Source: Candidatus Bathyarchaeia archaeon
Lineage (GTDB): Archaea; Thermoproteota; Bathyarchaeia; Bathyarchaeales; Bathycorpusculaceae
NCBI GenBank assembly: GCA_049512075.1
Contig: JBEKXL010000011.1
Span: forward strand, 9,312 to 73,311
Length of the DNA: 64,000 nt
Reading direction: 5' to 3'
Both the position numbers and the translations under genes were made by a program. Under the pieces are notes generated by a model. That model made no database searches and was not told the DNA's origin. It was given only the letters and a program-made list of their open reading frames with translations. This document shows positions 707-59,673 of the stretch, one piece after another (the first letter of the stretch is position 1; every line of letters starts with the position of its first letter).

Positions 707-803
707 ATGAAGAGACAGACGGGCGCGTGGATAGATGCTCAGGTCTGGAATGCCTACTGGGAACTTTGCGGCCGTGAAAAGCTGCGGCTATCTACGCGCG
801 CGC
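707..803 (+). pseudogene. Ribbon-helix-helix-like N-terminal fragment ending at a (CG)n tract
   Basis: MKRQTGAWIDAQVWNAYWELCGREKLRLS has a strand-helix pattern. A diverged copy lies at about 8835-8900. Confidence 0.45.
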
Positions 804-805
804 AA

Positions 806-1951
806 CTAGGCCGCTGTTTCTTCGTTAATGTTTATTCCGTGACTCTTCAGACCTTCTGAAAACAGTCTGAAAAGTTTGTTGTCCATGCCTATTTTTTCAG
901 GCGGAACCACGCCCTTTTCTTTCAGATGTTTGTTCAGAATTAATTGTGCAACTATTGAAGCCGGATAGGCTGTTGTTCTGGCCATAGCGGTTACGCCTCG
1001 TCTTTTGTCGCAGAAGTCCAACAAGTCGTAGACTTGCGTTGTTCTCTTCTTGTCTTTTGTGCCGCGAGTCTCAATTCTCAACGCGACGATGTCCCTTTGT
1101 CTCCTGTCCGACAGTCTTCGCTCAAGGATTTTGGCGGTGAGCTTTCTGGGTTGAATATGGACTCCTTCCACGTTGACTCTTGATTCGCTGAAGAACCCCA
1201 GGGTTCTGAGCAATTTCACTTTCTCAGCGTGTCCTGGATATCTGAGCGTCTTCTCCCACATGTCTTCGACGTGCTTCATCGTGTGCAACAAGGTTCTGAG
1301 ACCGTCGGTGTAAAAAGCCTCAAGCTTTCCGACGCCGGGAAATTCAACTTCTTGCACTCCGCTCAGGGCTTCAACTTCAACTGTTTGGCCTTTTCTGACT
1401 ATTTCCGCCTTTCTTGTGTACTCGTCGATGAGGCTCTCGGGAGACCATGTGATGACGTAGCCCAAGGGGGGAATGGGTTTTTCGGGAAGTCCGCCGACCA
1501 TTATGTGAACTGATTTAACGTTGTCAAGCGTTGAAACAGAATTTCCGACTAGTACGTTGCTGATTCCTGGGGCTAGTCCACAGTCTGGGACGAGGGTTGA
1601 ACCTGCATGTACGGCGGCCTCGTTGAGTCGCATAGGGTTTTCAGACATGTAGGAAACGTCAACTAAATCCTTGTGGGCATTGATGCATGTTTCCGCCAGG
1701 CGGTATCCGAGGTTGCCCGGCAGAAAGCCCATGGTTATATCGAACTCTTTCAGAGTATCCATTAGTTCATCACGTTTCGCAACGTCTGATTGGATCCATG
1801 AAACATTGCTCATGCCTATTTTTTTGGCAACAAGTTTCGCTCTTACTTCATTCATGTCGGCAACAACGACCTCAGTCGAACTCATACTGTTGGCCAAGTC
1901 TTCCGCCGCAACGGAGCCTATGTTTCCACAGCCCATTACCAATACTTTCAT
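806..1951 (-). CDS. Saccharopine dehydrogenase / lysine 6-dehydrogenase family oxidoreductase
   Basis: Rossmann motif MKVLVMGCGNIG, plus DCGLAPG, VGGLP, KTLRYPGH and MARTT. The start was moved to ATG 1951 because the ORF-track extension overlaps SUI1. Confidence 0.88.
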   Translation of the reverse strand: MKVLVMGCGNIGSVAAEDLANSMSSTEVVVADMNEVRAKLVAKKIGMSNVSWIQSDVAKRDELMDTLKEFDITMGFLPGNLGYRLAETCINAHKDLVDVSYMSENPMRLNEAAVHAGSTLVPDCGLAPGISNVLVGNSVSTLDNVKSVHIMVGGLPEKPIPPLGYVITWSPESLIDEYTRKAEIVRKGQTVEVEALSGVQEVEFPGVGKLEAFYTDGLRTLLHTMKHVEDMWEKTLRYPGHAEKVKLLRTLGFFSESRVNVEGVHIQPRKLTAKILERRLSDRRQRDIVALRIETRGTKDKKRTTQVYDLLDFCDKRRGVTAMARTTAYPASIVAQLILNKHLKEKGVVPPEKIGMDNKLFRLFSEGLKSHGININEETAA

Positions 1952-2134
1952 GTTCCTAGATTCAGAGAGGATTTTCATTAAAGGTTTTCCTAGGTTTAGC
2001 TGGCAAGACGGGCTGGGGACCCGTGGAACTAGGTGAATCTCATGCGGGAGAAATAATGCTACAGGTGGAGTCTGGTTACAGATAATCGATTTGAAAGTCT
2101 TATATACTCCAATGGTGATGTAGAATTGAGTATC

Positions 2135-2443: not shown

Positions 2444-2469
2444 TTGCCCCCGTGGACGGGGGGCGTAGG

Positions 2470-5177: not shown

Positions 5178-5382
5178 AAATTATCCCATTTTGGCTGTTT
5201 TTTGTGTATGCATTGAGGTTTTGGTTTTTGACTTAAAGCATCAGCGTGTCAGTGTTCTGGCTCGAGGGATTCTTACCCCCATTGAACCTCTTCCTTTAGA
5301 ATTGACTGTTGAATTGTAAAATTGCAATGTTGCGTCTGGCGACCCCCCTTTTTTGTTTGCGCGCGCGAAAAGGAAAGAGTGG

Positions 5383-5901
5383 CTAGTAGTAGTATGTTAT
5401 CGTTATGGTTTCAGTTGCGTTACCGACCAAGTTTGTGTTTCCGACCCTGATTTCTATCGGGGGGAGGATAACTGGTGGAAAGGGCGTGATTGGGTAAGGG
5501 ATGTAACTATATGATACTGGAGAAACTGCTGTTCCACTTACGCCAACACCTATTTGATTATCGTAGTTGACACCATTGAAAATGTAGATGACCCGAACAT
5601 AGGTATTAGAGGTTGTTGATGATAGAACATTAACTGAAACATATCCTGCATACCTCGATACGAAAAACCAAGAGGTATAATTGCTTGCAGTTTGAGTTAC
5701 AGTCGTATTAACCCAAACTTCGGATTTGCCCAAGTTGGCAATATCGGTGAGGTCGTTCACTCTTGAATTTAATGAAGAAATCTGTAATATAGCTCCCAAT
5801 AGACCGACTACTAGAATGATACAGACTATTCCAAGTGCAATAGCAACATTCCTACTGACCATCTTCTTTGGTTTCGTTTCACTTGGTTTTGTTTCACTCA
5901 T
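5383..5901 (-). CDS. Membrane-anchored hypothetical protein (family ending ...TITxYY)
   Basis: N-terminal TM helix, short coiled coil, beta-rich domain. Paralogous to 12327-12869. Confidence 0.8.
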   Translation of the reverse strand: MSETKPSETKPKKMVSRNVAIALGIVCIILVVGLLGAILQISSLNSRVNDLTDIANLGKSEVWVNTTVTQTASNYTSWFFVSRYAGYVSVNVLSSTTSNTYVRVIYIFNGVNYDNQIGVGVSGTAVSPVSYSYIPYPITPFPPVILPPIEIRVGNTNLVGNATETITITYYY

Positions 5902-7429: not shown

Positions 7430-7726
7430 ATGAGGATGAAAAGCAAAGAGTTTATGGACAAAGATGTCTATGCTGGGACCGAGAAAATAGGCACAGTCAA
7501 AGAACTCGGAATAGATCCAGGAAGTTGGGAAGTAACTCATCTTGAAGTCGAATTGACTAAGGATGCAGCTGAATCTGTGCTTGGTGCAAAGAAAGGTGGA
7601 GTGCGAAACATGTTGGCCACTTCAGCCCTAAAGAGCGGGGTTGCACGCTGGACAGACAAAGGGCTAAACTTAGAGGTCCCAAAAACAGAACTGCACGCGT
7701 ACCTAAAACCAGTAGTTGAACCTTAG
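7430..7726 (+). CDS. PRC-barrel domain protein
   Basis: MKSKEFMDKDVYAGTEKIGTVKELGIDPGSWEVTHLEV pattern. Confidence 0.8.
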   Translation: MRMKSKEFMDKDVYAGTEKIGTVKELGIDPGSWEVTHLEVELTKDAAESVLGAKKGGVRNMLATSALKSGVARWTDKGLNLEVPKTELHAYLKPVVEP

Positions 7727-7740
7727 TTGGGGATTTGGCT

Positions 7741-7911
7741 GTGGACTGGTTTTGGACGATTGTTGTCATACTCGTGATACTGTGGGCAGTGGGATTCTTT
7801 GCTTTCTATAGCATAGGTCCAATAATACATATACTGATTGTGATTGCCGTAATCATAGTAGTATATCGACTGCTGACTGGAAGACACATATTGTCTGGAG
7901 ACAAAAGATAG
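7741..7911 (+). CDS. Small membrane protein, lmo0937/DUF5670-like (not in ORF track)
   Basis: GTG start; MDWFWTIVVILVILWAVGFFAFYSIGPIIHILIVIAVIIVVYRLLTGRHILSGDKR*. Confidence 0.75.
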   Translation: MDWFWTIVVILVILWAVGFFAFYSIGPIIHILIVIAVIIVVYRLLTGRHILSGDKR

Positions 7912-7992
7912 CGTTCACAGACTGTAATTTATGCCAAAACCCATACCAAAACCCAAGAAGACTACGCTTTCTCTCTCCTGCTTTCTTTTTCT

Positions 7993-8054
7993 GTTCTGCA
8001 CTTTCGACATAATGTTGATAGCTAGTTAGACAATAACTAACCATTCCTTCCCCC
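7993..8054 (+). repeat. About 60-bp direct repeat, copy 2
   Basis: Matches 7252-7313; a 22/24 partial copy lies at 35145-35168. Confidence 0.9.
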
Positions 8055-8133
8055 CTTCTATAGGAAAACTTAAACACATAACACCGTTCTTTTTTTGGTT
8101 TAGTTTAGTATGGAGTGAAAAGGTGGTGATAGA

Positions 8134-8355
8134 ATGAAGAACGGAAAGAAATTAGTTATAGTAGCCTTAGTATTATTCCTATGCAGTTTTATCAGCGAAA
8201 TTCTTGCTGTATATCCTGTTCTCTGCAATACTCTTTTCAATGCTAATCTCCCTACTCTTCTTGACTCCACTTACGCTATGCTTCTCTCTGAAATAGGAAT
8301 AGTATTAGTTTTTGTGGCTCTAATTCTTGCCATAGTAGGAGTAGGTTTAAGCTAG
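8134..8355 (+). CDS. Small two-TM membrane protein
   Basis: Two hydrophobic helices; upstream GGTGGTGA SD-like sequence. Confidence 0.6.
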   Translation: MKNGKKLVIVALVLFLCSFISEILAVYPVLCNTLFNANLPTLLDSTYAMLLSEIGIVLVFVALILAIVGVGLS

Positions 8356-8642
8356 AAGTAAAGTTAGTATCTCTCTTTTTTTAGTCTCTTAGTTCTTTAG
8401 GCTTTGGTTTAGTCTAGGCTTTAGTATAGTCTTGGTGGGGGGGGGTCGTGGGTGGTCCTAGAGCCTCAGAGCCTCAAAGGACACTTAGACACAGTGAAAA
8501 CTTGGACACTACAGAAATCAATCTTCCCTCTTTTTCTACAGTTTAATTAATCTATATCATTTGGTGGACATAGAGTTAAACTTAGTATTGGATACAGAAT
8601 AAATCTATAAATGAATCACTACTATCTATATTCTCTCTAGGC

Positions 8643-12869: not shown

Positions 12870-12973
12870 AATCCCCTCTCTTTTTCCAGTTTAAGCCATG
12901 CCACGCGAGAGGCTCTAGCCAAGCTTAAGGAGATTATAGACGGTGAATGTAAATAGGTGCATATCGCGCGCGC

Positions 12974-14573: not shown

Positions 14574-14804
14574 TCTTTTCTTTTAGCCACCGCCGGACTG
14601 AACTGTTCACGATTCCCATGAGCTGAGAAAAACTTGTTCTCCCTTCTCAGTCACAATGGACCCCGCTTGAGGTTAATACCGGCAATAGGCTTTCCAGAAG
14701 AATAATAACAATTGATGTACTAGATAAGACTTGTGAAACAATGCTCTTGCATATGCTAGACAGATCTCCATTTCCTGTACGATTCGATACAGCTCCGTGC
14801 GCGC

Positions 14805-15031: not shown

Positions 15032-15111
15032 TTGGATGCGTTCTGAGCGCGCGCGTTTTCAAAAGTCTTAAATGGAGTTTCACGTTAAGTGAACCTGAGG
15101 TTGTTTATGAA

Positions 15112-17273: not shown

Positions 17274-17527
17274 GCAACCTCACCGCCCAAAACCCCTAAA
17301 CAAACAACCATATAACCCTTAGCAACACAATACAAGAAAACAGCCAATTGAGCCTCGGCGTGCGCATTACGACTTGTTACCTTTTACCATTCTTTCAACA
17401 TTGCTCAAAAGTGCGTAGCGCGCGCTAATTTTTGCTCCTGATATATATCGGAACTCGAAATAATGTATTAAATATTACGACACCATATTGTGTGTCTAAC
17501 AATCTCTTGGACGACGGGGGAATCTGT

Positions 17528-18154: not shown

Positions 18155-18311
18155 TCGCAGGCAAAACCCTCAAGGAGGCAAAAAAGCCCGCTTGAGACCA
18201 TGGAAACGTCTTCCGCGCGCGCCATCATGCGAATGTTTTTCTGTGAACTTATGTTGGGCCTTGCGAGAAAGCGACGTTTCCTGAGGTTCAATGTTCTGTA
18301 GTCGTCTTTCT

Positions 18312-18395: not shown

Positions 18396-19240
18396 AGCGC
18401 GCATGCGTGTTCCTAAATTGGTCTAAAATGGTTTTTATTCGTCTTTCTTAAGTCGAGGGCAGTTTGGGGTTCATATCTGTCCTTGATTCCTACGAGTACC
18501 TGTCTACTCTGAACACAGCAGAAACAACCAAAACGGAATTAAAACCATTTTTAACCATTTTCGGAACAGGCATGCGCGCTACAGGAAATAGTCCATGCTG
18601 TTTCAGGAAAAGATGCTCATTTCTTTGAGAAGAAGTCTTAAGTTTGAAAAGGTCACAGAACACGGAAAATTGATGTTGCGTCCATTGTCTTTTTGGAAAT
18701 AGGGAAAAAGCTGAATTGTTGCCTATTGTTACCACAAAATTGTTACCTTTTCCCATCATTTTCCGCTGTTTGCTGTAATGCGCGCGCTATCACAAGTTAG
18801 GCACCCCGAAGCAAGGGCTCTTCTGAAATGCTCACGAATCTCTCTAGATTGACCATGCAAAGCTCCCCGCACCCGTCGGAGTGAAAAAGCATGACGCAAG
18901 GTCAGTCTTGCCTTGTGAAGATGCACGGCTCGTTAGGTGTTGGGCACTCCAATGCGGGATGGTACAGACACTTTCTTTTATTGACTTGATCTTTGACATG
19001 ACTATTCAGAAACGATTTTTCACCGTATACTTTGGTCATGAATTGGCTCCACCAAAACTTTGCTTCAGTCCTGCCTCTTCCAAAGAGTGTTCGATGAACG
19101 GTTTATTGATTTCCCTTCGTTCTTTCCAAATGTCAAAGCTACACCCGTTAATGTTGAAAGCAGGCACGTGCGATGCGAACCGAAAGCTTTTATTGAAGTT
19201 TAAAACTTACTTTGCCCATACCGCTTGAAGATGATGCTTC

Positions 19241-30401: not shown

Positions 30402-30576
30402 TGAGGCAACCCCTCTTTTGAAACGACTCAGTTTCATTTCAATGAATAATTATGGTACATGACGTTTGGAGGTCGTAGGCGCGCGCTTCTTCGTAGGGAT
30501 ATCTCTATATGGCTCATTGAAGTTCTATCAACGGCAGAAAGGTTTTCAAATGTTCTAAAGGGAGCGAATCCAACAG

Positions 30577-31584: not shown

Positions 31585-31789
31585 TCACCTGAAGAAATGC
31601 GTGCGCGAGAGCAAGCTGTTGGACTACCCCCTATACTGCCTCCACACAAGCGCGCGCTGGATGATGCATTGATGGAGCGAGACGATGGCGATCGTGCCTG
31701 TTGTGAAAAACGCCGATGTTGGCCTCGCTGTTCAAGCGCGCGCAGTCTGAAAGCGACCTGGATTGCAGGAATGGGCGCACGGAAGAAGT

Positions 31790-33279: not shown

Positions 33280-33584
33280 CCTGACATACTCTCACAAGTA
33301 GATTTAGCAGGGCAAAATTAAACCTTTGCGGCAAGAAATGGTGGTGACCTGTATGAACCCCGCGCGCGCTTTCGCCATCAGGTCTTTCGTGAGTAGCCAG
33401 GTCAGAACGCGCTTCGGATTTCGGCTGAGTGTTTTGGTTGACTATAGTTTTTCCAACTAAAGCGTATACTCGATTTCGATAACATCTATCTATAGTAGAT
33501 TATGGTATCCTTCCTGTTCCATTAATGTCCATAGATGTATCCTGAATCGGGTATACAGTCTTCAGCCGTCCTTCAGAAGGCCTA

Positions 33585-36449: not shown

Positions 36450-36579
36450 AGCCTAACTTCCTCTTTTTTTCCTCGTCTCTCTCTGGAATATTTCAAACAC
36501 AGGTATGCTTAACATATGCGCGCGCTCAAAATCATATATAATAGTTGCAGGTTAGCTAGCAATTAGCAGGTGAGTTGTC

Positions 36580-37011: not shown

Positions 37012-37314
37012 ACATAACCTCAACAAATCCTTTTCATCTTTCCCCTCTTTTTCTGTTCGTTGTTCCTAGGCGCGCTCTCTAGTTTGTCTAAATGGTTATA
37101 GCGCGCGCGCTAAGGCTTTTAGGGCTAATCGTCATGCTGTTTAGTTTGAAGTTCTAGGCCTTGTTACAAATTGATGTAAGGCTTAGCGCACGCTAAAATG
37201 ACACGTGGATGCGCGCGCACACGCACTAAAAGCAATTAAAAAATTCAAAATGATGCTAATCCTGATAAAAGCATGAGGAGCATTGAAGAAGCAAGCAATT
37301 ATTCCGCGCGCTAA

Positions 37315-37455
37315 GAAGAACTGACACAGCAGAAGACGATTACAGAAACAATCTCCGAGAAGAATATCGATTTGAACCAGAGAATAGGTGAGACTGAACA
37401 CAAGCTTGCAGAGCTGGAGAAGCTTATCAGAAAGACCTTGAACGAAACGAGTTGA
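37315..37455 (+). pseudogene. Diverged copy of the integrase C-terminal tail
   Basis: EELTQQKTITETISEKNIDLNQRIGETEHKLAELEKLIRKTLNETS*, compared with EELTQQKLITDTISE...DLKGRIIKTEQRLAELEKLTRQALEQTS*. Starts just after CGCGCGC at 37305-37311. Confidence 0.85.
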
Positions 37456-37645
37456 AAGCTGCGAGCGAGGGACCTTTGTCACGGTTTATGCCAGGATCTA
37501 TGCTCACATATTGAAAAACGATGAATATCCACATGTAGATACCAGAGTGTATCTATGCGCGGGCTACCGGGGTTCGGCTAACGTTTCAACCGATCCATAA
37601 ACTGCCTGAGAAACTGCGCTTGAATTTGACTGAAAGCGCGCGCGC

Positions 37646-37967: not shown

Positions 37968-38162
37968 GCGAGCGCGCGCTGAATCACTAGTTGGAGCATC
38001 CATTTTGCTTATGCATTTTCTTTTTTAAAAAAGCGCGTGCTAGGCTCTGAGATGGATGACTGAAGAGAAGAAGAGGAGCTTAGTCGCCCCAGAGCAGGAG
38101 AGCTGGGTTGATCCTCAATTTTTAAAATAGAAAAAAGGTTTGGTTGGTTTTGATACCGTTTT

Positions 38163-40727
38163 CTATTTCAACTTGATTGCTATGGAGTACGTGGTTCCGT
38201 CGTCCAATGTTACTATTATCTTGTGGGATCCTGCGGATAGGCCTTTGGTGCTGAGGTTGAAGATGTATTGGTTGCTGGCCGGATCATACCTGAAGCTGTT
38301 GAGATTGTTAGACTCCCCAGAAGATGCCCCCGGATTCGATGCCGAGTCGACCCATATGTGAGCCACGGCAGTTGATACGAAGTTACCACCGTTGTCCGTG
38401 AGCTGGAACATTGCTGGAACTACGCTGCCAGCCTTATAGATGCCACCACTCTTGAGTGGAAGAGCGAAACCACTGAACACGTAGACCACACTATACGTGA
38501 CGGTCTTTGTGGCGATGTTGCCCGCTTTATCGGTGGCTGTTATGGTGAAGCTCTTAGAACCAACCGTGCCAGTATCGATGTAGCTTCCACTCGGCACAGG
38601 ACCGCCCCAACCTGCTAAGCCGGAAACAGCGTCGCTACAACCATAATCCGCAGCCACGAGCTGCTTCAGGATATATGTTGCCCCATTCGCTGGAGTGGTT
38701 GCCGTGATCGCTGGAGGAGTCTTGTCTATCATGATTGGTTGAGTCTTGGTCGATTCAACGTTGCCAGCGTTGTCTGTGGAATTATAGTAAACCGTCGTCG
38801 TGCCCTCTCCACCTATCGTGAAGGGACTTGAGTAGGTAATCCAAGTTGGGCCGTCTAAGCTATATGAGGTCCCAGCTACGCCTGAACCGCCAACATTATC
38901 GTTCGCTGATAGAGTTACCGCTACGTCAGAGACGTACCAGCCGTTGTTACCAAGATCTCCAGATAAAAACGCACTTGTTACAGGCGGTGAATTGTCCATA
39001 ACGTATATCACCGCGGCCGTGAAGGCGGACGACACGATCCACGAAGTCACGGACGTGGAGTAGAATCGTTCTCCATTCGCATTTACTGGGTTTGTTATGG
39101 TCACCTTGGAACCAGCGTCGCACCACCCGATGAAGGGGTTTCCGTCGCAAATCGCGGGGTAAGTCCCAGTCTGTTTCGATATGGCGTTTTCCACCCAGGA
39201 TACTGTCGCATTTGCGGGGTAGGGAAGCCCTGTGGTGGTGATAGTAACGTTGAACTGGTGGAAATAGTTGACCGTGTAGGTTAGGGGTTCGGCTACAGAC
39301 CATACATGTGTATCGATGGTGTAGTATCGTTCCGTGCCGCTGTTTTGAACATCATTCTCTATGTAGAGTTGTGTGCCGTGGTCACATTCGTCTGACCATG
39401 TTCCGCCTGAAATACTGCCAGTCATGCCAACGCCGTTCTTTGTATAGTGTACAATGTTTGATGCACTGTCTAGTCCAGGCGTGTTTATGGTCATCATGTG
39501 CTCTCCGCTCAGGCTGAGCGTTGGGTCTCCAAGTATAGTCAAGCCGTAATACATGCCTCGGTCCTGCTCGCCCCACGCACTAAACCAGTGTCGGAAAGCG
39601 TCGCCGAGGGCAAAGCTTTGGCCCAAATCACCGTAGAACAAGTCTTCACCCCGCTCCATGCCGCCTGGCTTAGTACTGCCAACGGCTGCGAGTCCATACG
39701 TCGGTGTGAATATGTACCATCCACCCACATAATCTTGTTGAGTGAAGTCTGCTGCTTGGCAGACAAAGAGATTGTAGAAGAAAACATGAGGATCTGTATT
39801 GCGAACATCAGGGTTACCCATGACCGCAACGTGCTGGGGGGCTGGGTAACCTTCGTATACGGAGCTAGATGGGTGGGAAGGATCTGGAATCAGGAACCCA
39901 TGTCCGGCACTATTACCATGGCACAAAACATCTACGAAACTCCATCCCTCACCAAGTCGGTTTAAATAATCAGATTTGCATGTGGTAGCGTTGTTTTCAA
40001 CCAGTGTGACAGCATCCGCATAGACATAGGCTTTAGCAACGTTGTCTTTGATATGCAACTCAGCGGAATCAATAAGTGTCCAGGGGTCGTCAACGTATAC
40101 CAGGGCCCTCTGGGGAAGGGCTAGGCTTCCAATCCTGTATGCATGGTCTTTGTCAAAGTAGTTCTCAATAAGCGAAACCTCATTGTCCACCATCGTGTCT
40201 GCCTTGAGACGTCCAACCCATATGTCAGGCGCGGTGTTTCCTGTATGCTGATCATACAAGCCATTATGGTTTGAATCTGTCCAGGTGCCGTCTAAATCCA
40301 TGTAGAAAAGGTCTATTGGAAACTGTTCATAGGCATTATTATCATCAGGGTTGTTCATCTCGTACATTGCAGCCGGTATATTGCCGACCAGTAGGCAACC
40401 AGCCAGATCATTCCCCGCCTTCTGCAGGGCACTCCGTTCCGAGCTTAACCAGGCTCTAATATCCTCTGGGGTTCCACCATCAAATTCGTAGACCGCGCAG
40501 CCGAACCCCGTGGCCTCCAAATCTTCCTTATATCGTGCTAAACGAACAGCTATGACGCCTTGTTCCCATAGCGACGAGTTGACCAAAACATAGACGTAGC
40601 GCGAGTTGTGAGACGAGCCTATGACTGGTACAATGTTAGCGCGCGCGCTAATGCTTTTTGGAGCAAGCATTGAAAACATTGGTAAACACAGAATGCTTAT
40701 GATTATCACTGCGAATATCTTTTTCAC
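38163..40727 (-). CDS. Secreted C25 (gingipain-like) cysteine peptidase + Ig-like domains + PxKF-like C-terminal domain
   Basis: GTG start MKKIFAVIII signal peptide; DLFYMDLDG, PDIWVGRL, CHG, LFVC, LGDPTL; GNNGWY.SDV.V.L Ig domain; VVPAMFQL. Confidence 0.85.
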   Translation of the reverse strand: MKKIFAVIIISILCLPMFSMLAPKSISARANIVPVIGSSHNSRYVYVLVNSSLWEQGVIAVRLARYKEDLEATGFGCAVYEFDGGTPEDIRAWLSSERSALQKAGNDLAGCLLVGNIPAAMYEMNNPDDNNAYEQFPIDLFYMDLDGTWTDSNHNGLYDQHTGNTAPDIWVGRLKADTMVDNEVSLIENYFDKDHAYRIGSLALPQRALVYVDDPWTLIDSAELHIKDNVAKAYVYADAVTLVENNATTCKSDYLNRLGEGWSFVDVLCHGNSAGHGFLIPDPSHPSSSVYEGYPAPQHVAVMGNPDVRNTDPHVFFYNLFVCQAADFTQQDYVGGWYIFTPTYGLAAVGSTKPGGMERGEDLFYGDLGQSFALGDAFRHWFSAWGEQDRGMYYGLTILGDPTLSLSGEHMMTINTPGLDSASNIVHYTKNGVGMTGSISGGTWSDECDHGTQLYIENDVQNSGTERYYTIDTHVWSVAEPLTYTVNYFHQFNVTITTTGLPYPANATVSWVENAISKQTGTYPAICDGNPFIGWCDAGSKVTITNPVNANGERFYSTSVTSWIVSSAFTAAVIYVMDNSPPVTSAFLSGDLGNNGWYVSDVAVTLSANDNVGGSGVAGTSYSLDGPTWITYSSPFTIGGEGTTTVYYNSTDNAGNVESTKTQPIMIDKTPPAITATTPANGATYILKQLVAADYGCSDAVSGLAGWGGPVPSGSYIDTGTVGSKSFTITATDKAGNIATKTVTYSVVYVFSGFALPLKSGGIYKAGSVVPAMFQLTDNGGNFVSTAVAHIWVDSASNPGASSGESNNLNSFRYDPASNQYIFNLSTKGLSAGSHKIIVTLDDGTTYSIAIKLK

Positions 40728-41428
40728 TTCTTCTTTCTCCTTTTTTGTCCAATGTTGTTTAGACAAATACGGCCTATAAGACTTATGAAACCATCTTCTA
40801 TGCCACTCTTTCCCCCGCCGATTAAACGACATCAGTATCGCGGCGCGCGCTATTCACTGATCTCCATCGCTTCATCTTGAGCTTCCTGGTCAAATCCCAG
40901 ACAGGCGCGCAAATTTTTCTCGGGACAAGCGCGTTGATCTCCCATTCTTCATAAGGCTTATATTCATAATTGCCTATCTCTAACTTGGTATATCAACTAA
41001 ACCGAAAAGCTAACTATTTGTTAGGACTTCGGGAGATATCTCCACTCGTTTTCAATAGGTTAAGCTAACAATTCTAGGAATCCATGTTTGTTTTCGTTCC
41101 TCAAATAATGTGCAGCGCGCGCCATAAGCTTCGTTTACGCTTTGGGTTTGGCGCGCGCATGCGAAGGCAAATGAAACCTGAACACATGCGTCGAAGACGA
41201 CTGCTTAGTAGGCCTGCCAGACCCTGCCATTCAGGCTTTGTACCACTGGCAACACTACCCATAGTCCCTAGTTTGTTACAATGCAGCATTACGATTGGCG
41301 TTACAAATAAACGGAACCGGTTGACTTTGAAAGAATAGTTCAGCCTGTTTTCAACATGGATTGTCACAATTCAACATTACAACGGAAGTTACAACTGAAA
41401 AGAGGGGTCGACCTCACACGCGGTTCAT

Positions 41429-48377: not shown

Positions 48378-49592
48378 GTGAGGAGTCTGAAGCCCTTCAG
48401 CTTTGTTCACGCTGCGGATTTGCACTTGGGCTACTCACAGTACGGCTTGGAAGTTCGCCGCGAAGACTTTGACAGAGCGTTCCAAGAACTTGTCGACAAA
48501 ACCCTTGAACTGAAACCGGACTTCATGATCATTGCAGGAGATCTGTTCCATCAGGCACGACCGTCCAACATCACGCTGGAAAACAGCATCAGAAGCTTCA
48601 ATCGCCTGCGAGAGGCTGGAATTCCGGTTCTGACGGTCGACGGTTCACACGATTCGGCCCCTAACTCGATAACAGGGACGATCATGAATCCGTTGGACAG
48701 CGCCGGCTTGATTTATTATCTGCCCAGACATGAGGGAGCATGTTGGCGAAAGGCCGATTGTTGTTATGTTTATGGCGTCCCCAATTACAGGAACAGGCAC
48801 AGGACTGAGGAGGCCCTTCCGGTCTTCATGGAAGAGAACAGGCCGAGCCCATATCCGTCATTGTTCAACATCTTCGTTTTCCACATGGCCCTGGATCTTC
48901 CGAACGTCAAGCCTCCTTACATCGAGGCTGAAGCCGCACCTGAACTCATTCCCGAGGGCTTCGACTACTATGCTGCGGGACACGTGCACACACCTTACAT
49001 GGAAAAATTCAAGACTGGTCTTCTGGTTTACAGCGGATGCACTGAGACAACGGACTACGTTGAAGCAAAAAACAAGAAAGGCATCTACCACGTCAAAGTG
49101 AACGAAAAAGGAGCAGTTTCCCCAGAGTTCATAGAGTTTGAATCCTCGCGCGAGTTTGTAATTTTGGAGCAGGACTTCACAGGCATCGTTCCATCAAAAA
49201 TCACGGAGCAGTCTATTCAAATAGTCAAGTCGGCTGACAAGGAGGGCGTGGTCATGATTCCAGTTCTAAAAGGCATACTGCCCGCCGGAGCGACTCGCAC
49301 AGAAGTGGATATCGCACGGATCAGAGCGGCCGGGGAGAAGGCTTTGTTGGTGCATCCTGTCATGTTATTACGTGAAAGTGAAGTTTCAGAAGAGATTGTT
49401 CGTTCAATCTTCGAGAGTGAAATCAAAGATTTGAAAACGAAGGCTTTCGAATATTTTTTGCAGATCTTTTCTGAACGTCACAGCAAGGAAGAGGCTGAAA
49501 AGATAGCCCGCATTGCATCCAGTTTGATAGAACCACTGACTAAGAAGCAGGAAGAAAAAGTGAAACAGGCCATGGAGGAGCTTCTGCAATGA
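48378..49592 (+). CDS. mre11: DNA double-strand break repair nuclease Mre11
   Basis: ADLHLG, AGDLF, DGSHD, AAGHVH, YSG; overlaps the rad50 start. Confidence 0.9.
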   Translation: MRSLKPFSFVHAADLHLGYSQYGLEVRREDFDRAFQELVDKTLELKPDFMIIAGDLFHQARPSNITLENSIRSFNRLREAGIPVLTVDGSHDSAPNSITGTIMNPLDSAGLIYYLPRHEGACWRKADCCYVYGVPNYRNRHRTEEALPVFMEENRPSPYPSLFNIFVFHMALDLPNVKPPYIEAEAAPELIPEGFDYYAAGHVHTPYMEKFKTGLLVYSGCTETTDYVEAKNKKGIYHVKVNEKGAVSPEFIEFESSREFVILEQDFTGIVPSKITEQSIQIVKSADKEGVVMIPVLKGILPAGATRTEVDIARIRAAGEKALLVHPVMLLRESEVSEEIVRSIFESEIKDLKTKAFEYFLQIFSERHSKEEAEKIARIASSLIEPLTKKQEEKVKQAMEELLQ

Positions 49593-51676: not shown

Positions 51677-51728
51677 AAAGGCTGTTTGCATGCGGAGCCG
51701 TACAAGAAAGACTTCTCTGGCAGCGCGC

Positions 51729-51863
51729 GCTTTGCTTGAGCCCATAGGGGCGACGATACTGGACGTGTTTCTGTTCCGAGAAGTGCCTGCACCGATATTT
51801 TTATCGGGGGCAATTACAGTTTCTACGGGCATTCTTTTCATCGGCAGAAACCAGAATCAATAG
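51729..51863 (+). pseudogene. Orphan C-terminal fragment of a DMT/EamA-type transporter
   Basis: ALLEPIGATILDVFLFREVPAPIFLSGAITVSTGILF..., beginning at the GCGCGCGC tract 51723-51730. Confidence 0.65.
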
Positions 51864-52272: not shown

Positions 52273-52953
52273 TCACTTCAGCGCGCGCGTTTCTCTAACC
52301 ATTATGACTCTCACCTGATCGCAGGCATCCTCACATGAGTCTGCAACCATTTCCAAAGCCTCAAAGAGTTGGCTTGCCAATATTGCCACTCCAGCCCTCG
52401 GGAGGTCTTCTGTTCCGAGCAAAGCTCTGGCCTTTTCGTGCATGTCATCAACCTTTTCCTCTTCCCGTTCTACCGCGTCAGCGGCTTGAAGGGCTTCTTC
52501 GGGTTTTGTCATCATTTTGTTCACGCATTTCTGGAGAGAGACAGTACATTCCTTTACGCTCTTAACCATTTCTATGAATGCATCTTTGATTGCATCCGGC
52601 ACATGCTCCATTGGTATTGCGCCCAGTACGCGCGTGGACTCTCTGCTCCAGTCTGCGACCATGTCTACTCTTTTCACCAGCTCCATCAAGTCTTCTCTGT
52701 CCGTTGGTGAAAGTTCTCCTGTGGAAATTTCATCCATGACCTTTCTTCGCAGGGAATCCGCTTCTTTTTCGCCGCTTGTCACTCTTCCTATGCAAGTTTG
52801 CATTTCCTTCATATCTCTCTTTACCGCTGCTTTTATCGCGTTTTCAAGGTCTTCCACTATTCCGCTTGTCAAAGCTAGATGCCGCTGAATATTCGCCAAA
52901 GCTTTGGTCTCTTTCCGCTTTTCGAACCATTTTATCAATTCACTCAACGGCAA
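52273..52953 (-). CDS. DUF47/PhoU-like protein
   Basis: EKEADSLRRK...DREDL...DMVAD; EEKVDD...EMVADSCEDACD. Confidence 0.88.
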   Translation of the reverse strand: MPLSELIKWFEKRKETKALANIQRHLALTSGIVEDLENAIKAAVKRDMKEMQTCIGRVTSGEKEADSLRRKVMDEISTGELSPTDREDLMELVKRVDMVADWSRESTRVLGAIPMEHVPDAIKDAFIEMVKSVKECTVSLQKCVNKMMTKPEEALQAADAVEREEEKVDDMHEKARALLGTEDLPRAGVAILASQLFEALEMVADSCEDACDQVRVIMVRETRALK

Positions 52954-56673: not shown

Positions 56674-58431
56674 TTGAAGTACAGCGTGATTGCAGATGCT
56701 TATGAAAAGATCGAAGCCACCAGTAAGAGACTTGAAATGACAGACCTGCTAGTTGATCTCCTCAGGAACACGCCGAAAGAACTCATAGGCAAAGTCGCCT
56801 ACTTGACTCAAGGCCGAATACATCCTGATTTCGTAAGCATTGAAATTGGTGTGGCTGAAAAATCGGCGATAAAGGCTCTTGTGAGAGCTTCTGGAAGGAA
56901 AGAAACTGACATTGAAGACGATATCAAACGGACTGGAGATATTGGTGAGACGGCTCAGAAGTTTCTTGGCAGCAAGAGACAGGTGACATTCTTTCAAGAA
57001 CCGTTAACAGTTCAGAAGGTCTATGAGACACTTGACAAAATGGCTGGGACTTCGGGTTCCGGGGCTGTGGATTTGAAGCTTTCACTTTTGGCTGGGCTTT
57101 TGGCCGCGGCCACTCCGAAAGAAGCAAAGTACGTTATGAGAACTGCTACGGGCAACCTGCGTTTGGGTATAGCTGACATGACGGTTCTGGACGCGTTGGC
57201 TATAGCTTACGGGGGAGGGAAGGACACGCGTGAACTTGTCGAGCGGGCTTACAACATCTGTTCGGACCTTGGACGAGTGGCTGAAACCATTGCTCGACAG
57301 GGAATTGAGGGGATCAAGGGGTTCCGTGTGTCAATTGGTGAGCCTATTCGGCCGATGTTGGCAGAAAGGCTTTCCTCTCCTGAAGAGATTCTCGAAAAAT
57401 TGGGTGGAAAGTGCATAGCCGAATACAAGTATGACGGTGAACGTCTTCAGGCGCATAAAAAGGGCGAGAGAGTGACGCTCTATTCTAGGCGTTTGGAGAA
57501 CATTTCAAGTCAATACCCCGATGCTGTTGAACTCTTCAAGAAGCAGGTTAAGGCAAGAGAGGCCATTCTTGAGTGTGAGTGCGTGGCTGTTGACCCTGAC
57601 ACGGGTGAGATGCGTCCATTTCAAGAGCTTATGCATCGCAGGCGCAAATACGGAATTGAGAAAGCTATAGAAGATTATCCTGTTTCGCTCTTTTTCTTCG
57701 AGTTACTCTACGTTGATGGAAAGGATTTGACGTTCGAGGCTTACCCAGCTCGAAGGAAAGTGCTTGAGAAGGTGATTGAAAAGAGTGATCGGACCAGAAT
57801 AACCAACTACGTAATTGCGAAGGATGCGGGTGAGCTTGAAAAGTTCTTCCAGGAAGCCATAGAGAATGGCTGTGAAGGTCTGGTCTGTAAGGCAGTTGGC
57901 AAGGATTCGGTGTATCAGGCCGGGGCACGGGGTTGGCTTTGGATAAAGTACAAGCGGGACTACAAGAGTGAAATGACCGATACGGTTGATCTGATTGTGG
58001 TTGGAGCTTTTCATGGGAGAGGGAAACGGGCTGGCGCCTACGGTGCTCTCCTGCTAGCGGCCTATAATTCTCAGAACGACACTTTCGAAACAGTTACCAA
58101 GTGTGGAACAGGGTTTACTGATGAGGATCTCGCGAAGCTTCCAAAAATGCTTGAAAAACATGTTGTCCAGCGGAAGCATCCGAGAGTCAATTCGATGCTT
58201 GAGGCTGATGTCTGGTTTGAACCTCGAGTGGTTATTGAGATATTGGGGGCAGAGATAACCTTGAGCCCCATCCACACGTGCGCTATGGATTCTATTCGAA
58301 AAGGAAGCGGACTTGCCATTCGATTTCCACGTTTCACTGGAAACTACAGAGTTGATAAGGCAGCTGAGGATGCAACAACTGCAAATGAGGTTGTGGAAAT
58401 GTACCACAAGCAGTTGAAGAAGATCAGCTAA
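56674..58431 (+). CDS. lig: ATP-dependent DNA ligase
   Basis: PMLAE, EYKYDGER, EGLVCK, WIKYKRDY, RFPRF; probable TTG start at 56674. Confidence 0.97.
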   Translation: MKYSVIADAYEKIEATSKRLEMTDLLVDLLRNTPKELIGKVAYLTQGRIHPDFVSIEIGVAEKSAIKALVRASGRKETDIEDDIKRTGDIGETAQKFLGSKRQVTFFQEPLTVQKVYETLDKMAGTSGSGAVDLKLSLLAGLLAAATPKEAKYVMRTATGNLRLGIADMTVLDALAIAYGGGKDTRELVERAYNICSDLGRVAETIARQGIEGIKGFRVSIGEPIRPMLAERLSSPEEILEKLGGKCIAEYKYDGERLQAHKKGERVTLYSRRLENISSQYPDAVELFKKQVKAREAILECECVAVDPDTGEMRPFQELMHRRRKYGIEKAIEDYPVSLFFFELLYVDGKDLTFEAYPARRKVLEKVIEKSDRTRITNYVIAKDAGELEKFFQEAIENGCEGLVCKAVGKDSVYQAGARGWLWIKYKRDYKSEMTDTVDLIVVGAFHGRGKRAGAYGALLLAAYNSQNDTFETVTKCGTGFTDEDLAKLPKMLEKHVVQRKHPRVNSMLEADVWFEPRVVIEILGAEITLSPIHTCAMDSIRKGSGLAIRFPRFTGNYRVDKAAEDATTANEVVEMYHKQLKKIS

Positions 58432-58739
58432 AGATCGGTTCCAGCTAGGGAGCGAGTTCGTTTGATTCGGGATGGTGCAGATTCATTTGATGGTTGATTT
58501 GAAAATGGGGTCCTTGTGTTTGATTGCTCAATTCGTGATTTTTCTGAGGCTCAAACGGTGATAGATGTTATCATACAATAGCGCAAGTGCGAATTTTTGT
58601 GCCTGTACTTGGTGGCTTTTGAGAAAATCGGTGAAAATAAGGTTTCAGGAGGTTGTGGGCGCGGGGGCAGATTTTGTTCATGATAGATTGGTTAGGGAAG
58701 GAGGAGAAAAGGGAGAGAGAAGTTATGCGCCGTGCGCTA

Positions 58740-59459
58740 GTTGCCCTTGGAAGACACAGTACCGAGCAACCTTTAAACAAATAGGCTTGGACTCTTCGGC
58801 ATCTGGCATGATTGTGGTCGGCAACAGCACTGGCAAATCATTCTCTCAATTGCCCTATTCGTTCTGGGTTGATTGCGGGGCCAATATAGTCTATTCATAT
58901 TACAATGTCAGTAGTTCCACCGTGGGAAAAAGGTTCATGCCCGTCAATGTAACCGGTCCCTTACCACCCAAGATTGTGGTTGCTCCCATCTGCGTGACAG
59001 GAAATTACAAGACGCAGTATCTGTTAACGGTTGCTACCAACCCCTCAGATTTGAGTCCTCAACCCACCCGAAGTCTACCAGGCGAACCACAGACCACTAG
59101 CAGCTGGTGGTACGATGCTAACACAACTGTTCTCTTGATTGCACAACAAGTTGACAATTACACGTTCAGCAACTGGGATAATTGATGGCATATCCCAAGG
59201 CGACGCCGTCAATCCCATTTCTGTTCTTATGAATGTTGCAAACACTGCCACGGCTAACTACCAGATTAATTCACCCCCTCAGCCTCCTCCACCGCCGCCA
59301 CCTCCTCCAACAACTGTGGGAGGATTCTCTTACTCATTAGCCAGAAAAGGCTCAGCATCTTCCTTGGAAGTCGCTGCACCACTCCTTATGCTGCTTGGAA
59401 TCGTTCTGTTAGTGACTCGACGCAAATCAAAGAGGCTTCGCCCGCCGGAGGCATTGTAG
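58740..59459 (+). pseudogene. 5'-truncated, frameshifted surface protein with Pro linker, VGG motif and TM anchor
   Basis: WKTQY...GNYKTQYLLTV...WYDANTTV...FSNW, then a frameshift near 59175 to IIDG...ATANY..PPPPPPP..VGG..TM-RRKSKR. Confidence 0.7.
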
Positions 59460-59673
59460 CGAGTGCTAACCAGACGTGGCACGTTTGAAGCGAATGAAAA
59501 AACTTAGACACCAAGAGTCCAAATATCTAGACATTCAAGTCAGCGCGCGCTGTAAACGCTTTACGGAGTGAGCGATAGACGCGCAGCTAATCTGGCCTAG
59601 AATATTGTTACGCAACCTTTAAATCAATTACTTGTTCTTTTAGAAAGTAAGGAGAAAAGGAGCATTGTAAATT

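Follow-up and report, generated by a model that had tools for sequence, protein, structure and literature searches.

GCGCGCGC at points of insertion, loss and exchange of DNA in a peat-soil archaeon suggests an undescribed way to cut and join DNA

In a peat-soil archaeon of the Bathyarchaeia, hundreds of copies of the palindrome GCGCGCGC are present and often mark the exact points of DNA insertion, loss or exchange; this suggests an undescribed way to cut and join DNA. These alternating G/C tracts are re-used sites, beyond passive scars. We favour, with a probability of about 0.5, the view that they are copies of one self-contained 8-bp palindrome that serves as a cut-and-join site for DNA in this lineage. 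An earlier note on this DNA had read the tracts as junction scars; they do lie at breakpoints, but the association is partial and none of the four mechanisms listed there is established. Nor are they scars alone, since an IS5-like element and MITEs sit in tract centres and other modules are inserted at tracts.

Tracts in the window and across the genome

A tract in the window (the whole 64,000-nucleotide stretch analysed, 47.7% G+C) was defined as a maximal alternating G/C run of at least 8 nt. The run scan returned exactly the 23 coordinates listed in the earlier note, beside 19 runs of 6-7 nt. GCGCGCGC itself has 26 overlapping matches, compared with 0.63 expected (sd 0.82, maximum 3) from 100 dinucleotide-preserving shuffles; the earlier estimate of about one by chance in 64 kb was therefore right. 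By our gene calls, which are home-made and crude for window and genome alike and underlie every intergenic/coding split given here, 20 of the 23 tracts are intergenic. Two tracts (40639 and 52281) had been placed in intact coding sequences and do lie in frames, but a third, at 37636, lies in a doubtful 115-aa frame. Clustering around the integrase is real but only modest (genome-wide index of dispersion 2.0, 10-kb bins). The objection that these junctions are assembly chimeras does not hold, as all nine tracts of at least 8 nt at 36.5-41.2 kb are spanned by contigs of other runs: seven by X5 contigs and the other two by X7 contigs, from runs not flagged as possible sources. The tracts and associated features are as follows.

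795..803: tract CGCGCGCGC, 2 nt past the stop of minus-strand gene 806-2377
5359..5367: tract GCGCGCGCG, intergenic, 15 nt past the stop of minus-strand gene 5383-5901
12965..12973: tract CGCGCGCGC, adjoining a start-less ArsR-type HTH frame at ~12975-13106 (plus strand; HTH_5, E 4.9e-6)
14799..14804: 6-mer GCGCGC, where the homology that small gene 14741-15031 shares with its paralogue copies stops on the left
15047..15055: tract GCGCGCGCG, where the same homology stops on the right
17360..17417: short repeated module, part of a ~58-nt insertion (GTGCGC on the left, the 17418 tract on the right) that is missing from relative G003
17418..17425: tract GCGCGCGC, right edge of the ~58-nt insertion; the G003 site reads AAGCGCTG
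18214..18222: tract CGCGCGCGC, 60 nt past the stop of 17432-18154
18396..18579: MITE1, 184 bp, a derivative of an IS5-like element; terminal inverted repeats ATGCNTGTTCCTAAAT...; arrangement TAGCGCGC/MITE/GCGCGCTA
18585..18779: repeated module with its right end at a tract
18780..18787: tract GCGCGCGC, right edge of that module
30479..30486: tract, 78 nt past the stop of 26667-30401
31650..31657: tract, convergent intergenic region
31736..31743: tract, same convergent intergenic region
33361..33369: tract, divergent intergenic region
36518..36525: tract, 69 nt past the stop of tyrosine-recombinase gene 35304-36449
37101..37110: tract (GC)5, from the run scan; spanned by contigs of other runs
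37211..37218: tract, from the run scan; spanned by contigs of other runs
37305..37311: 7-mer CGCGCGC, 4 nt ahead of the integrase-tail fragment
37315..37452, plus strand: orphan integrase-tail fragment, 60% identity to aa 329-381 (of 381) of integrase 35304-36449
37636..37645: tract (GC)5, within the doubtful 115-aa frame
37972..37979: tract, 5 nt past the end of the doubtful 115-aa frame
40639..40648: tract (GC)5, in the 889-aa frame 38163-40832 (minus strand), close to its N-terminus
40843..40850: tract, 11 nt upstream of the start of the 889-aa frame
41115..41122: tract, from the run scan; spanned by contigs of other runs
41151..41158: tract; a diverged copy of a dockerin-gene-tail module begins ~30 nt downstream
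51723..51730: tract, adjoining a weak EamA C-terminal tail at ~51729-51863 (plus strand; E 0.0055, under the Pfam cut-off)
52281..52289: tract, within the final codons of frame 52273-52953 (minus strand)
59543..59550: tract, intergenic, ahead of cohesin/dockerin gene 59674-62412

Six gene scraps had been described as starting or stopping at tracts, and three of them are supported. The integrase tail is a paralogue of the window integrase and begins just after the 7-mer, the wHTH scrap is an ArsR-type HTH that starts right after its tract, and the EamA tail does match from its tract onward, although below Pfam's threshold. For the GatE-like tail and the coiled-coil scrap, a Pfam search gave no significant family match, and the sole paralogue fragment near the supposed RHH fragment ending at 795 (523-708, minus strand) ends 87 nt from that tract.

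Genome-wide, GCGCGCGC is the commonest 8-mer, with 646 copies compared with 30-45 expected under Markov models of orders 1-3. Alternating G/C runs of 6, 7, 8, 9, 10, 11, 12 and 13 nt number 669, 195, 284, 186, 105, 3, 2 and 1, giving a bump at 8-10 nt and a sharp stop at 11; no comparable bump was found in the genome for (AT)n, (AC)n or (AG)n. This histogram already disfavours the idea of a slippage-prone microsatellite or Z-DNA-type fragile site that involves no dedicated machinery. The sequence is indeed alternating purine-pyrimidine, and 4 of 22 tracts shared with a close relative differ in length by 2 nt, as slippage would predict. However, the lengths are not geometrically distributed, 8 bp is short for Z-DNA, and most relatives of like G+C carry 0-7 copies, such that we give this explanation next to no credence.

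Tracts are concentrated between genes. Among 581 tracts in the genome, 113 lie within gene calls and 468 outside them or across a gene end; by the same home-made calls, 19.4% of the genome is intergenic and tract density is ~20 times higher outside genes than within. Convergent, divergent and tandem spacers have much the same density, ~1 per kb, and no fixed spacing of tracts from gene starts or stops was found genome-wide. The tracts yield the consensus (T)A-GCGCGCGC-T(A), with A at -1 and T at +1 each in 58% of tracts, which bears out the remark that many read A(GC)nT. Beyond +/-2 nt we detected neither flank conservation nor a longer repeat unit anywhere in the genome. TA is present on both sides of 29 tracts (26.8 expected), indicating that left and right flanks are independent, and no direct or inverted repeats of k = 1-8 flank the tracts, indicating no target duplication.

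Tracts as boundaries and as sites of insertion

Repeated DNA rarely continues through a tract. Repeat HSPs run more than 10 nt across a tract in 10 of 3531 instances (4 of the 342 tracts with hits), compared with 251 of 2469 (59 of 230 sites) at random intergenic positions. Both associations foreseen in the earlier note were found: of 197 ends of synteny blocks shared with a relative at 95% identity, 44 are no more than 15 nt from a tract (8.1 +/- 2.6 expected), and of 278 truncated paralogue-fragment ends, 28 are no more than 5 nt away (7.5 +/- 2.3 expected from 200 random shifts inside the same intergenic region, maximum 14), with 78% and ~90% of these ends, respectively, lying off tracts. 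Copies of one module begin at reference positions 35, 40, 49, 79, 81, 85 and 91, each right after a tract, and one MITE copy is cut 24 nt short of its end with a tract at the cut. The missing remainder of tract-truncated copies was absent within 6 kb in 71 of 72 cases. In the window, the module at 18585..18779 has a copy on contig C35 whose right end likewise lies at a tract and whose left part is cut away precisely at a tract; the contig C14 copy of the 14741-15031 homology continues past the right edge seen in the window without a tract.

Such boundaries could mean that the tract is the crossover core of a site-specific recombinase, with circles excised between two tracts and inserted again at other tracts. 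In support of this, the genome holds 15 tyrosine-recombinase paralogues or fragments, modules are found in both orientations, and in three indels (events f, g and h) a segment enclosed by two tracts in one genome corresponds to a solo tract in the other. A typical recombinase overlap region is also 8 bp in size. Yet nothing is conserved outside +/-2 nt, and there are therefore no recombinase binding arms; tracts abut arbitrarily truncated copies of one module, several integrase genes are themselves interrupted by tracts, and one tract lies at a deletion junction in a former gene where the ancestor had no site (see below). Recombination at a pseudo-site would be expected to yield only half of a tract. 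Given the unconserved flanks and the joins to arbitrarily truncated sequence, a tyrosine-recombinase core, as put forward in the earlier note, is quite unlikely.

Tracts also house an IS5-like insertion sequence and its MITEs, which occupy the tract centre. All 8 full-length MITE1 copies are flanked on both sides by GCGCGC, mostly with TA outside, a GC run of at least 6 nt lies within the 16 nt upstream of 37 of 47 IS-end core motifs, and several IS5-like subfamilies and MITEs carry (GC)3-4 outermost on each side. With TA(GC)4TA as the target, a 4-bp GCGC duplication would give the observed arrangement TAGCGCGC/element/GCGCGCTA; we infer the duplication from the arrangement itself, since no clean empty site for a MITE or IS was found. 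At two sites, the relative G002 has an IS end beside a 6-mer where the window's genome (G000) has a solo 8-mer or 10-mer.

These elements might themselves have produced the tracts, if insertion duplicates GCGC and excision with flank joining then leaves GCGC+GCGC, or slippage between the GC-rich ends leaves a solo tract. The fixed 8 bp would equal two 4-bp duplications, close transposase homologues (>70% identity) are confined to the tract-rich genus and G021, and MITE end counts roughly parallel tract counts in G000, G002, G004 and G021. That co-occurrence may, however, reflect plain shared descent. Moreover, G018 and G003 have 227 and 253 copies of GCGCGCGC but 0 and 4 MITE ends, and the G000 transposase was not found in G018 or G030, which nonetheless carry tracts. 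Solo tracts (~500) far outnumber element ends (59) and are flanked by no TA or other duplication; GCGC is absent from the tract-less alleles of clean indels and from the breakpoints of the polarised deletion described below. A footprint origin is thus improbable.

Gains and losses between close genomes

Closely related genomes differ by whole segments that one has and the other lacks at a tract. G002 is ~95% identical to G000 (665 kb fetched, 335 kb aligned). The aligned blocks contain 22 tracts, of which 6 are unchanged, 8 carry substitutions, 4 differ in length and 4 are clean 8-12-nt indels; some of the differences are multi-base substitutions toward or away from a perfect tract. By our reading of the junctions, an intact tract falls exactly on a breakpoint in 13 of 30 simple indels and a decayed look-alike in 4 more; 12 have no tract, including ordinary insertions with their own target duplications. 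A single event is polarised by an outgroup: a 776-bp segment that is unbroken in G002 and the outgroup G004, neither of which has a tract at the breakpoints, is lost in G000, and the new tract CGCGCGCGTA stands in its place inside a former gene. At two of the clean tract indels the outgroups failed to align, and insertion and precise loss therefore look alike there. Since 7 of 10 long alleles examined hold an internal tract or a 7-of-8 look-alike, some short alleles may be an old tract kept in place with both flanks lost, rather than a new tract.

Another way to arrive at such junctions is end joining, in which short tails of alternating G and C are added to broken ends, whether self-templated or untemplated, and, being self-complementary, anneal to leave a (GC)4-5 scar. 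Consistent with this, tracts lie at deletion junctions where the long allele has no microhomology, often with 1-4 extra bases alongside (events a, b, j, k and l), clean 8-12-nt indels are seen, and the two junctions of a tract are independent. G000 also encodes Ku, putatively between a LigD-type polymerase and a ligase-phosphoesterase by our reading of the neighbouring proteins. However, a near-fixed 8-bp product that stops sharply at 11 nt is odd for untemplated synthesis, and the targeting of tracts by IS elements and other modules is left unexplained. The distribution of Ku does not match either; by Pfam, it is found only in G000, G002, G004, G010, G020 and G040, the last three of which are tract-poor (1-7 copies of GCGCGCGC), and it was not found in tract-rich G021 (98% complete), G003 and G018. 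PolX was not found in G000, and none of 41 genomes yielded a reverse transcriptase. The genes for end joining, one of the mechanisms in the earlier note, therefore exist but do not track the trait, and we consider filler synthesis unlikely.

Under the cut-and-join reading that we prefer, the element would be GCGCGCGC, sometimes (GC)5, usually preceded by (T)A and followed by T(A). Each edge would act like a transposon end, a fixed sequence joined to arbitrary DNA, with left and right junctions forming independently and without target duplication; it would follow that tracts multiply through deposition at new junctions. Deposited tracts would then become preferred sites for more insertions and for flanking deletions. 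We regard as the most likely maker a palindrome-recognising activity, either transposase-like or of the nuclease-plus-ligase type; the IS5-like transposases would use the site, not make it.

Distribution and comparison with known systems

The trait is patchy over the Bathyarchaeia. As raw counts, without normalisation for G+C or size, GCGCGCGC has 168-646 copies in all five genomes of the genus and 0-7 in most of the family. The same 8-10-nt bump and TA flanks are seen in samples of G018 and G030. In some genomes of the class, GCGCGCGC and its reversed control CGCGCGCG are equally frequent. No gene was found whose distribution follows that of the tracts; the cytosine-5 methylase, Ku, PolX, reverse transcriptase and Y1 transposase families all fail to do so.

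In being the commonest 8-mer, palindromic and lineage-specific, the tract resembles HIP1. It could accordingly be a functional, highly iterated palindrome kept by selection or by methylation-linked biased repair, its link to rearrangement being secondary, for example as a hotspot for homologous exchange. One-mismatch variants of GCGCGCGC are mostly intergenic too (925 of 1534, where intergenic DNA makes up 19.4% of the genome), and the multi-base substitutions toward or away from a perfect tract would suit such a motif. Against this, the cytosine-5 methylase (PF00145) was not found in G000 or in three of its four genus relatives, and N6/N4 methylases, being present in 38 of 41 genomes, do not discriminate. 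Only 6 of 22 tracts are unchanged at 95% identity, 4 are whole-tract indels, and the new tract at the 776-bp deletion junction is unreachable by point changes, all of which leaves a HIP1-like function an unlikely account of the tracts. For the recombinase explanation, the counterpart would be integron cassettes, through circle excision and re-integration. The tract differs from a genome-wide motif in being ~20 times denser outside genes.

Abundance, form and position of the tracts

An eight-base GC palindrome, GCGCGCGC, ranks first among all 8-mers of the genome that carries the window (G000; 2.73 Mb in 86 contigs, 47.5% G+C), with 646 copies where Markov models of orders 1-3 predict 30-45 and a model of order 4 predicts 157. 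It lies at the core of the tracts, by which we mean alternating G/C runs of at least 8 nt, and is contained in 547 of the 581 tracts of G000. The 23 starts listed by the earlier note are exactly the runs of this length found in the window (47.7% G+C), which holds 19 more G/C runs of 6-7 nt, and the claim that such runs far exceed chance is borne out: the window contains 26 overlapping matches to the palindrome, against 0.63 expected (sd 0.82, maximum 3) in 100 dinucleotide-preserving shuffles. Assembly joints are excluded at 36.5-41.2 kb, since all nine tracts there are bridged by contigs (seven from sequencing run X5, two from X7), taken from runs not flagged as a possible source of the window DNA.

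The length distribution of G/C runs in G000 (8834 runs of 4 nt, 2105 of 5, 669 of 6, 195 of 7, 284 of 8, 186 of 9, 105 of 10, three of 11, two of 12 and one of 13) has a bump at 8-10 nt and stops sharply thereafter, whereas (AT)n, (AC)n, (GT)n, (AG)n and (CT)n merely decay. The tracts are therefore not a slippage dinucleotide microsatellite, for which run lengths would fall off geometrically into a long tail. Counts of 9-mers and of C(GC)4G agree with an 8-bp unit that a chance neighbouring base makes longer; (GC)5 is a minor second form (90 cases). Upstream of the tracts, A occupies position -1 in 58% and T position -2 in 36%; downstream, T occupies +1 in 58% and A occupies +2 in 35%. Past +/-2 nt the flanks are random, which rules out a longer hidden repeat around the tract. 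The left and right flanks are independent (TA on both sides in 29 cases, 26.8 expected), and no excess of direct or inverted repeats flanks the G000 tracts at k = 1-8, direct repeats being at chance level (55 vs 54.9 at k = 2; 0 vs 2.7 at k = 4). We conclude that there is neither a longer palindrome nor a duplication of TA or any other target; the tract itself lacks the target-site duplication that surrounds copies of MITEs and DNA transposons.

To place the tracts relative to genes we used home-made gene calls (codon-usage scoring, then open frames of at least 100 aa as fill-in), which gave 2711 genes covering 80.6% of G000. By these calls, 113 tracts fall in genes, 459 between genes and nine straddle a gene end, the palindrome is about 20 times denser outside genes than inside, and 20 of the 23 window tracts are intergenic. 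Density is similar in convergent (1.11 per kb), divergent (0.76) and tandem (0.98) spacers, and no preferred distance to gene starts or stops was found in G000; together, these results argue against a promoter or terminator element, and we rejected that reading. The tracts are moderately clustered (index of dispersion 2.0 in 10-kb bins), and their spacings are irregular (median 1705 nt), without CRISPR-like repeat-spacer periodicity. Ordinary genes of the window, at 22788-24704, 41429-42958 and 48378-51676, include those for the FttA termination factor, an exosortase-family protein and a Rad50/SbcC-type ATPase (49589-51676, with its upstream neighbour).

The palindrome is patchily distributed. 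All five genomes of the genus carry 168-646 copies and most of the family 0-7, the exceptions outside the genus being G021 (439), G018 (227), G023 (51) and, in another family, G030 (53). At least 100 copies occur in 29 of 301 Bathyarchaeia genomes, scattered over several families, by raw counts uncorrected for G+C and genome size; tract-rich examples are G089 (601), G098 (373), G250 (346) and G114 (325). Because the reversed word is equally frequent in some genomes, not all high counts need be the same phenomenon. In 60-kb samples of G018 (41% G+C) and G030 (43% G+C), the 8-10-nt bump and the TA flanks appear as in G000.

Tracts at breakpoints, homology edges and fragment ends

The earlier note proposed that the tracts are recombination or repair scars at the breakpoints of orphan gene fragments. 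The link to the ends of fragments and of synteny blocks is real, and it holds for a minority of ends. In the comparison with G002, a relative about 95% identical to G000 where the two align (665 kb compared; 335 kb aligned at >=88% identity in blocks of at least 800 nt), 44 of 197 block ends have a G000 tract no more than 15 nt away, where intergenic points placed at random give 8.1 +/- 2.6; the remaining ends have none so near. Similarly, among 231 intergenic fragments with a G000 paralogue, 28 of the 278 ends truncated by at least 15 aa fall within 5 nt of a tract (here >=7 nt), against 7.5 +/- 2.3 when ends are placed at random within the same spacer (200 trials, maximum 14), so that only about one end in ten is involved. 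Three of the six gene scraps named in the note hold up, namely the integrase tail at 37315-37452, the ArsR-type HTH after 12973 and, weakly, the EamA tail after 51730; the other three are without support.

Tracts turn over quickly between the two genomes. Inside aligned blocks, six of 22 tracts are unchanged, eight are substituted, four show a small length change and four are clean indels of 8-12 nt (e.g. AGCGCGCGCG or CGCGCGCG) in collinear surroundings; at two sites of clean indels, the outgroups G001, G003 and G004 did not align. The two genomes also differ by 61 collinear gaps, 30 of which are simple indels (one allele <=20 nt, the other >=40 nt). By reading of the junctions, 13 of these have an intact tract exactly at the breakpoint, four have a decayed look-alike, one has a tract 6 nt away and 12 have none, the last group including insertions that carry at their ends a short copy of the flank, such as 'ataaata' or 'agcttaatt'. 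Two patterns recur among the indels, which we lettered a to l: either one genome has tract-segment-tract where the other has a solo tract (events f, g and h), or a segment without end tracts is matched by a tract alone of 7-10 nt (events a, b, d, j, k and l), in some cases accompanied by 1-9 further bases.

Event a can be polarised. In G002 and the more distant outgroup G004, 776 bp of a helicase-like gene run uninterrupted, while G000 has CGCGCGCGTA in their place, and GCGC is absent from the breakpoints of both long alleles; event a is therefore a derived deletion, and its tract was previously absent. For event b, a segment of similar length is present in G004. In event c, what is a copy of GCGCGCGC in G000 is split at its middle by 575 bp in G002, and G001 has part of that segment at another place, which speaks for insertion into the tract; the flanks of the event are not adjacent in the outgroups. 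For event d, three outgroups gave no match. Among ten long alleles inspected, seven contain a tract or a 7-of-8 look-alike internally, so that in some cases the short allele may be an older tract that has lost the DNA on either side. The helicase-like gene itself (G002 C2:53483-56159; G000 C13:24736), with a motif IIDEAHNL read by eye, was apparently already frame-shifted, and appears split over three frames in G002.

Within G000, tracts are edges of homology. We searched the genome with 400 nt on each side of the 565 tracts located 400 nt or more from any contig end and found repeated DNA near 342 of them, yet only 10 of 3531 non-self HSPs, at four tracts, extend past the tract by over 10 nt; for 565 intergenic sites chosen at random, 251 of 2469 HSPs do so (59 of the 230 sites with matches). 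For example, homology between the small gene at 14741-15031 in the window and its copies is confined to the stretch from a 6-mer at 14799 to the tract at 15047, and the copy on contig C12 starts mid-gene, immediately 3' of GCGCGCTA. Copies of a dockerin module (the 3' end of a dockerin-type gene plus downstream DNA) begin at reference positions 35, 40, 49, 79, 81, 85 and 91, each right after a tract, and several also stop early at one. A truncated MITE copy likewise ends 24 nt short, with an 8-mer at the cut. At 72 tract sides where another copy continues tract-free, the missing part was found within 6 kb in one case (an 18-nt match); the truncated copies are therefore not simple nested insertions.

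These observations bear on the possibility that the tract is the core of a site-specific recombination system. A core of this kind has conserved recombinase-binding arms around the crossover. Unlike an integron attC site or a tyrosine-recombinase core, the tract has nothing conserved past +/-2 nt, and so no binding arms, and unlike integron cassettes with constant ends, copies of one module have variable truncation points.

Fifteen tyrosine-recombinase paralogues or fragments occur in 2.7 Mb, two of them in the window (35304-36449 and the integrase tail), and several fragments are cut by or adjoin tracts. At C1:335900-338800, by-eye reading suggests a decayed integrated element beside a putative tRNA gene, with ten tracts of at least 7 nt within 2.2 kb downstream of an integrase fragment; no tRNA genes were found in the window. 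The cohesin/dockerin/CARDB/PKD surface proteins form a large family of 60 members (13254-14573 and 59674-62412 in the window), and their gene 3' ends with downstream DNA are among the commonest tract-bounded modules. Eight 188-aa paralogues (e.g. C1:104874-105440) with two internal repeats, read by eye as a putative TATA-box-binding protein, lie in a repeat of about 600 bp that is also present in G002. A low-complexity stretch (GTCGTC..., CTAACT... and CAGACAAA... runs) occupies 33580-33830 of the window, upstream of 33888. Contigs of sequencing runs X1, X5 and X7 contain joints from 33710 to 41066/41071 that skip the integrase island of about 7.36 kb; we regard these as unreliable because their sides are only 21-23 letters long and lie in low-complexity DNA.

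Mobile elements in the tracts and the search for an enzyme

Two kinds of element sit in tracts.

MITE1: window 18396-18579; 184 bp; terminal inverted repeats; 8 full copies and 59 end matches in G000
IS5-like elements: G000 C32:7469-8577 (1109 bp), C39, C15 and C77; G002 C1:34476-35552; about 1.06-1.1 kb

MITE1 is also present in G001-G004 and G021. It qualifies as a MITE by its terminal inverted repeats, its multiple copies and the existence of a longer transposase-encoding element with the same ends, the 1077-bp element of G002, which has a frame-shifted DDE transposase gene. From sequence, we read the transposase of the longer elements as IS5-family; in the C32 element of G000 its gene spans 7493-8359. 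MITE derivatives number at least two (184 bp and 162 bp), and all of them, like the IS5-like elements, adjoin (GC)3-4. The end outline, (GC)3-4, a few bases and then TTGTYCC-AAAT, is common to several IS subfamilies, and 37 of 47 IS-end cores have a G/C run of at least 6 nt within 16 nt upstream. All eight full copies of MITE1 read (T)AGCGCGC/MITE/GCGCGCT(A), an arrangement that would match insertion at the centre of TA(GC)4TA with a 4-bp GCGC duplication; the duplication is inferred only, as no clean filled/empty pair was found. The 665 kb of G002 contain no clean empty sites for MITEs or IS, and in two messy pairs an IS end beside a 6-mer in G002 corresponds to a solo 8-mer or 10-mer in G000.

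That so many element ends abut G/C runs could mean that the tracts are footprints left by insertion sequences. However, tract-rich G018 has 227 copies of GCGCGCGC and no MITE ends, G003 has 253 copies and four MITE ends, and the G000 IS5-like transposase was not found in G018 or G030. The IS5-like elements and MITEs therefore cannot be the source of the tracts, and account for their use rather than their origin. The IS5-like transposase tracks the genus (g1) and G021 only, a shared distribution that may reflect kinship.

We also recorded the presence of candidate families in G000 and 40 relatives, with MAG incompleteness limiting all negatives.

Candidate enzyme families in G000 and 40 relatives (41 genomes)
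Cytosine-5 methylase (PF00145): not found in G000; full matches only in tract-poor genomes
Ku: G000, G002, G004, G010, G020 and G040 only (6 of 41 genomes, 3 of them tract-poor)
PolX (PolX thumb): not found in G000
Reverse transcriptase (RVT_1): 0 of 41 genomes
Y1 transposase (Y1_Tnp): G000, G001, G002, G014 and G020 only
N6/N4 methylases (N6_N4_Mtase): 38 of 41 genomes; non-discriminating

The distributions of PF00145, Ku, PolX thumb, RVT_1 and Y1_Tnp do not follow the tracts across the 41 genomes, and each was set aside as the responsible enzyme; Y1 transposase, for instance, was not found in tract-rich G003, G004, G018 and G021. The Ku result also bears on the idea that the tracts are filler added during end joining. 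G000 itself encodes Ku, but Ku was not found in tract-rich G021, G003 and G018, which are MAGs and possibly incomplete; subject to that incompleteness, Ku/LigD end-joining genes are not present wherever the scars occur. Outside the window, an apparent end-joining operon surrounds the Ku gene (Pfam match) at G000 C16:5124-8191, its neighbours being, by eye, a putative LigD-type polymerase (280 aa) and a putative ligase-phosphoesterase fusion (467 aa).

A cut-and-join reading and its relation to known systems

Altogether, the tract is a fixed short sequence joined on each side, independently, to arbitrary DNA such as truncated genes and truncated mobile elements; it turns over as a whole unit and serves as a landing site for further insertions. 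These three properties lead us to propose, with a probability of about one half, that the tract is a minimal palindromic cut-and-join element of some enzyme. By analogy, its chemistry would most resemble that of a transposon end or a cut-and-ligate site rather than a recombinase core or a regulatory motif. A bolder version, which we consider unlikely, is that GCGCGCGC is itself mobile, an 8-bp 'nano-element' or linker that a dedicated enzyme would excise at its edges and paste into DNA ends, or synthesise there, and that would owe its patchy spread to horizontal transfer. The palindrome would then be left at every junction that the enzyme makes, and each copy so left would offer a further place to cut, to insert and to delete flanking DNA; if true, a genome-rearranging system of a new class would be at work.

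In sediments and peat, Bathyarchaeia number among the most abundant uncultured archaea. In the close genomes compared here, a large part of the breakpoints of insertions, deletions and replacements carries one 8-bp word, which insertion sequences and MITEs use as a landing site. The word occurs in some lineages and is missing from their sisters. If a dedicated enzyme lies behind the cut-and-join element, it would cut and join DNA in a new way, at a site that is very short and simple, and would be relevant to mobile-element evolution and possibly as a tool. In these MAGs, the tracts can serve as markers of accessory or decaying DNA, pseudogene fragments and mobile-element edges, and they carry a warning for annotation and binning, in that open frames starting or stopping at a tract are suspect.

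A literature search at the level of titles and abstracts found no earlier description of this GC-tract feature. Among the nearest known kinds is HIP1 (GCGATCGC), a highly iterated palindrome of cyanobacteria (PMC5861425, PMC4390886, PMC13756078), described as exceeding one motif per gene in some genomes (PMC5861425) and as having a core tied to two orphan DNA methyltransferases that recognise it (PMC4390886). Both words are lineage-specific palindromic octamers, the most over-represented in their genomes, with an unsettled function that is discussed with recombination; GCGCGCGC, at 646 copies against 30-45, is likewise the commonest palindromic octamer and far above Markov expectation. A selected motif of the HIP1 type could explain the abundance, but the tracts are mostly outside genes (only 113 of 581 inside calls that cover 80.6% of G000). 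As for methyltransferases, PF00145 was not found in G000, and N6/N4 methylases of any specificity occur in 38 of 41 genomes. In contrast to HIP1 as described, copies of GCGCGCGC turn over fast, as whole-unit indels and at breakpoints.

REPs of bacteria are imperfect hairpins of 20-40 nt with a conserved tetranucleotide, and require a single-copy Y1 (RAYT) transposase. Like REPs and REPINs, the tracts are short intergenic palindromes present in hundreds of copies and are insertion targets for some insertion sequences. Unlike them, the tract unit is 8-10 nt with no conserved flank, 8 bp cannot fold alone, and there is no consistent co-occurrence with Y1 (RAYT). The GC clusters and similar small, GC-rich palindromic mobile elements of fungal and algal organelles are at least 30-50 nt long, lie in very AT-rich DNA and in some cases have AT/TA target duplications. 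They share with the tracts a scattered, non-coding, GC-rich palindromic character, an unknown mechanism of mobility, and a link to insertion/deletion differences and recombination junctions; the tracts differ in being 8-10 bp long, in an archaeal chromosome of 47.5% G+C, and in having no duplication. Lastly, IS5-family insertion sequences have a palindromic 4-bp target, and MITEs can derive from such elements. The tracts are also present in genomes where the IS5-like transposase was not found. MITE1 and the elements of about 1.06-1.1 kb, which derive from or encode a DDE transposase that appears to be of the IS5 kind, sit as GCGCGC/element/GCGCGC.
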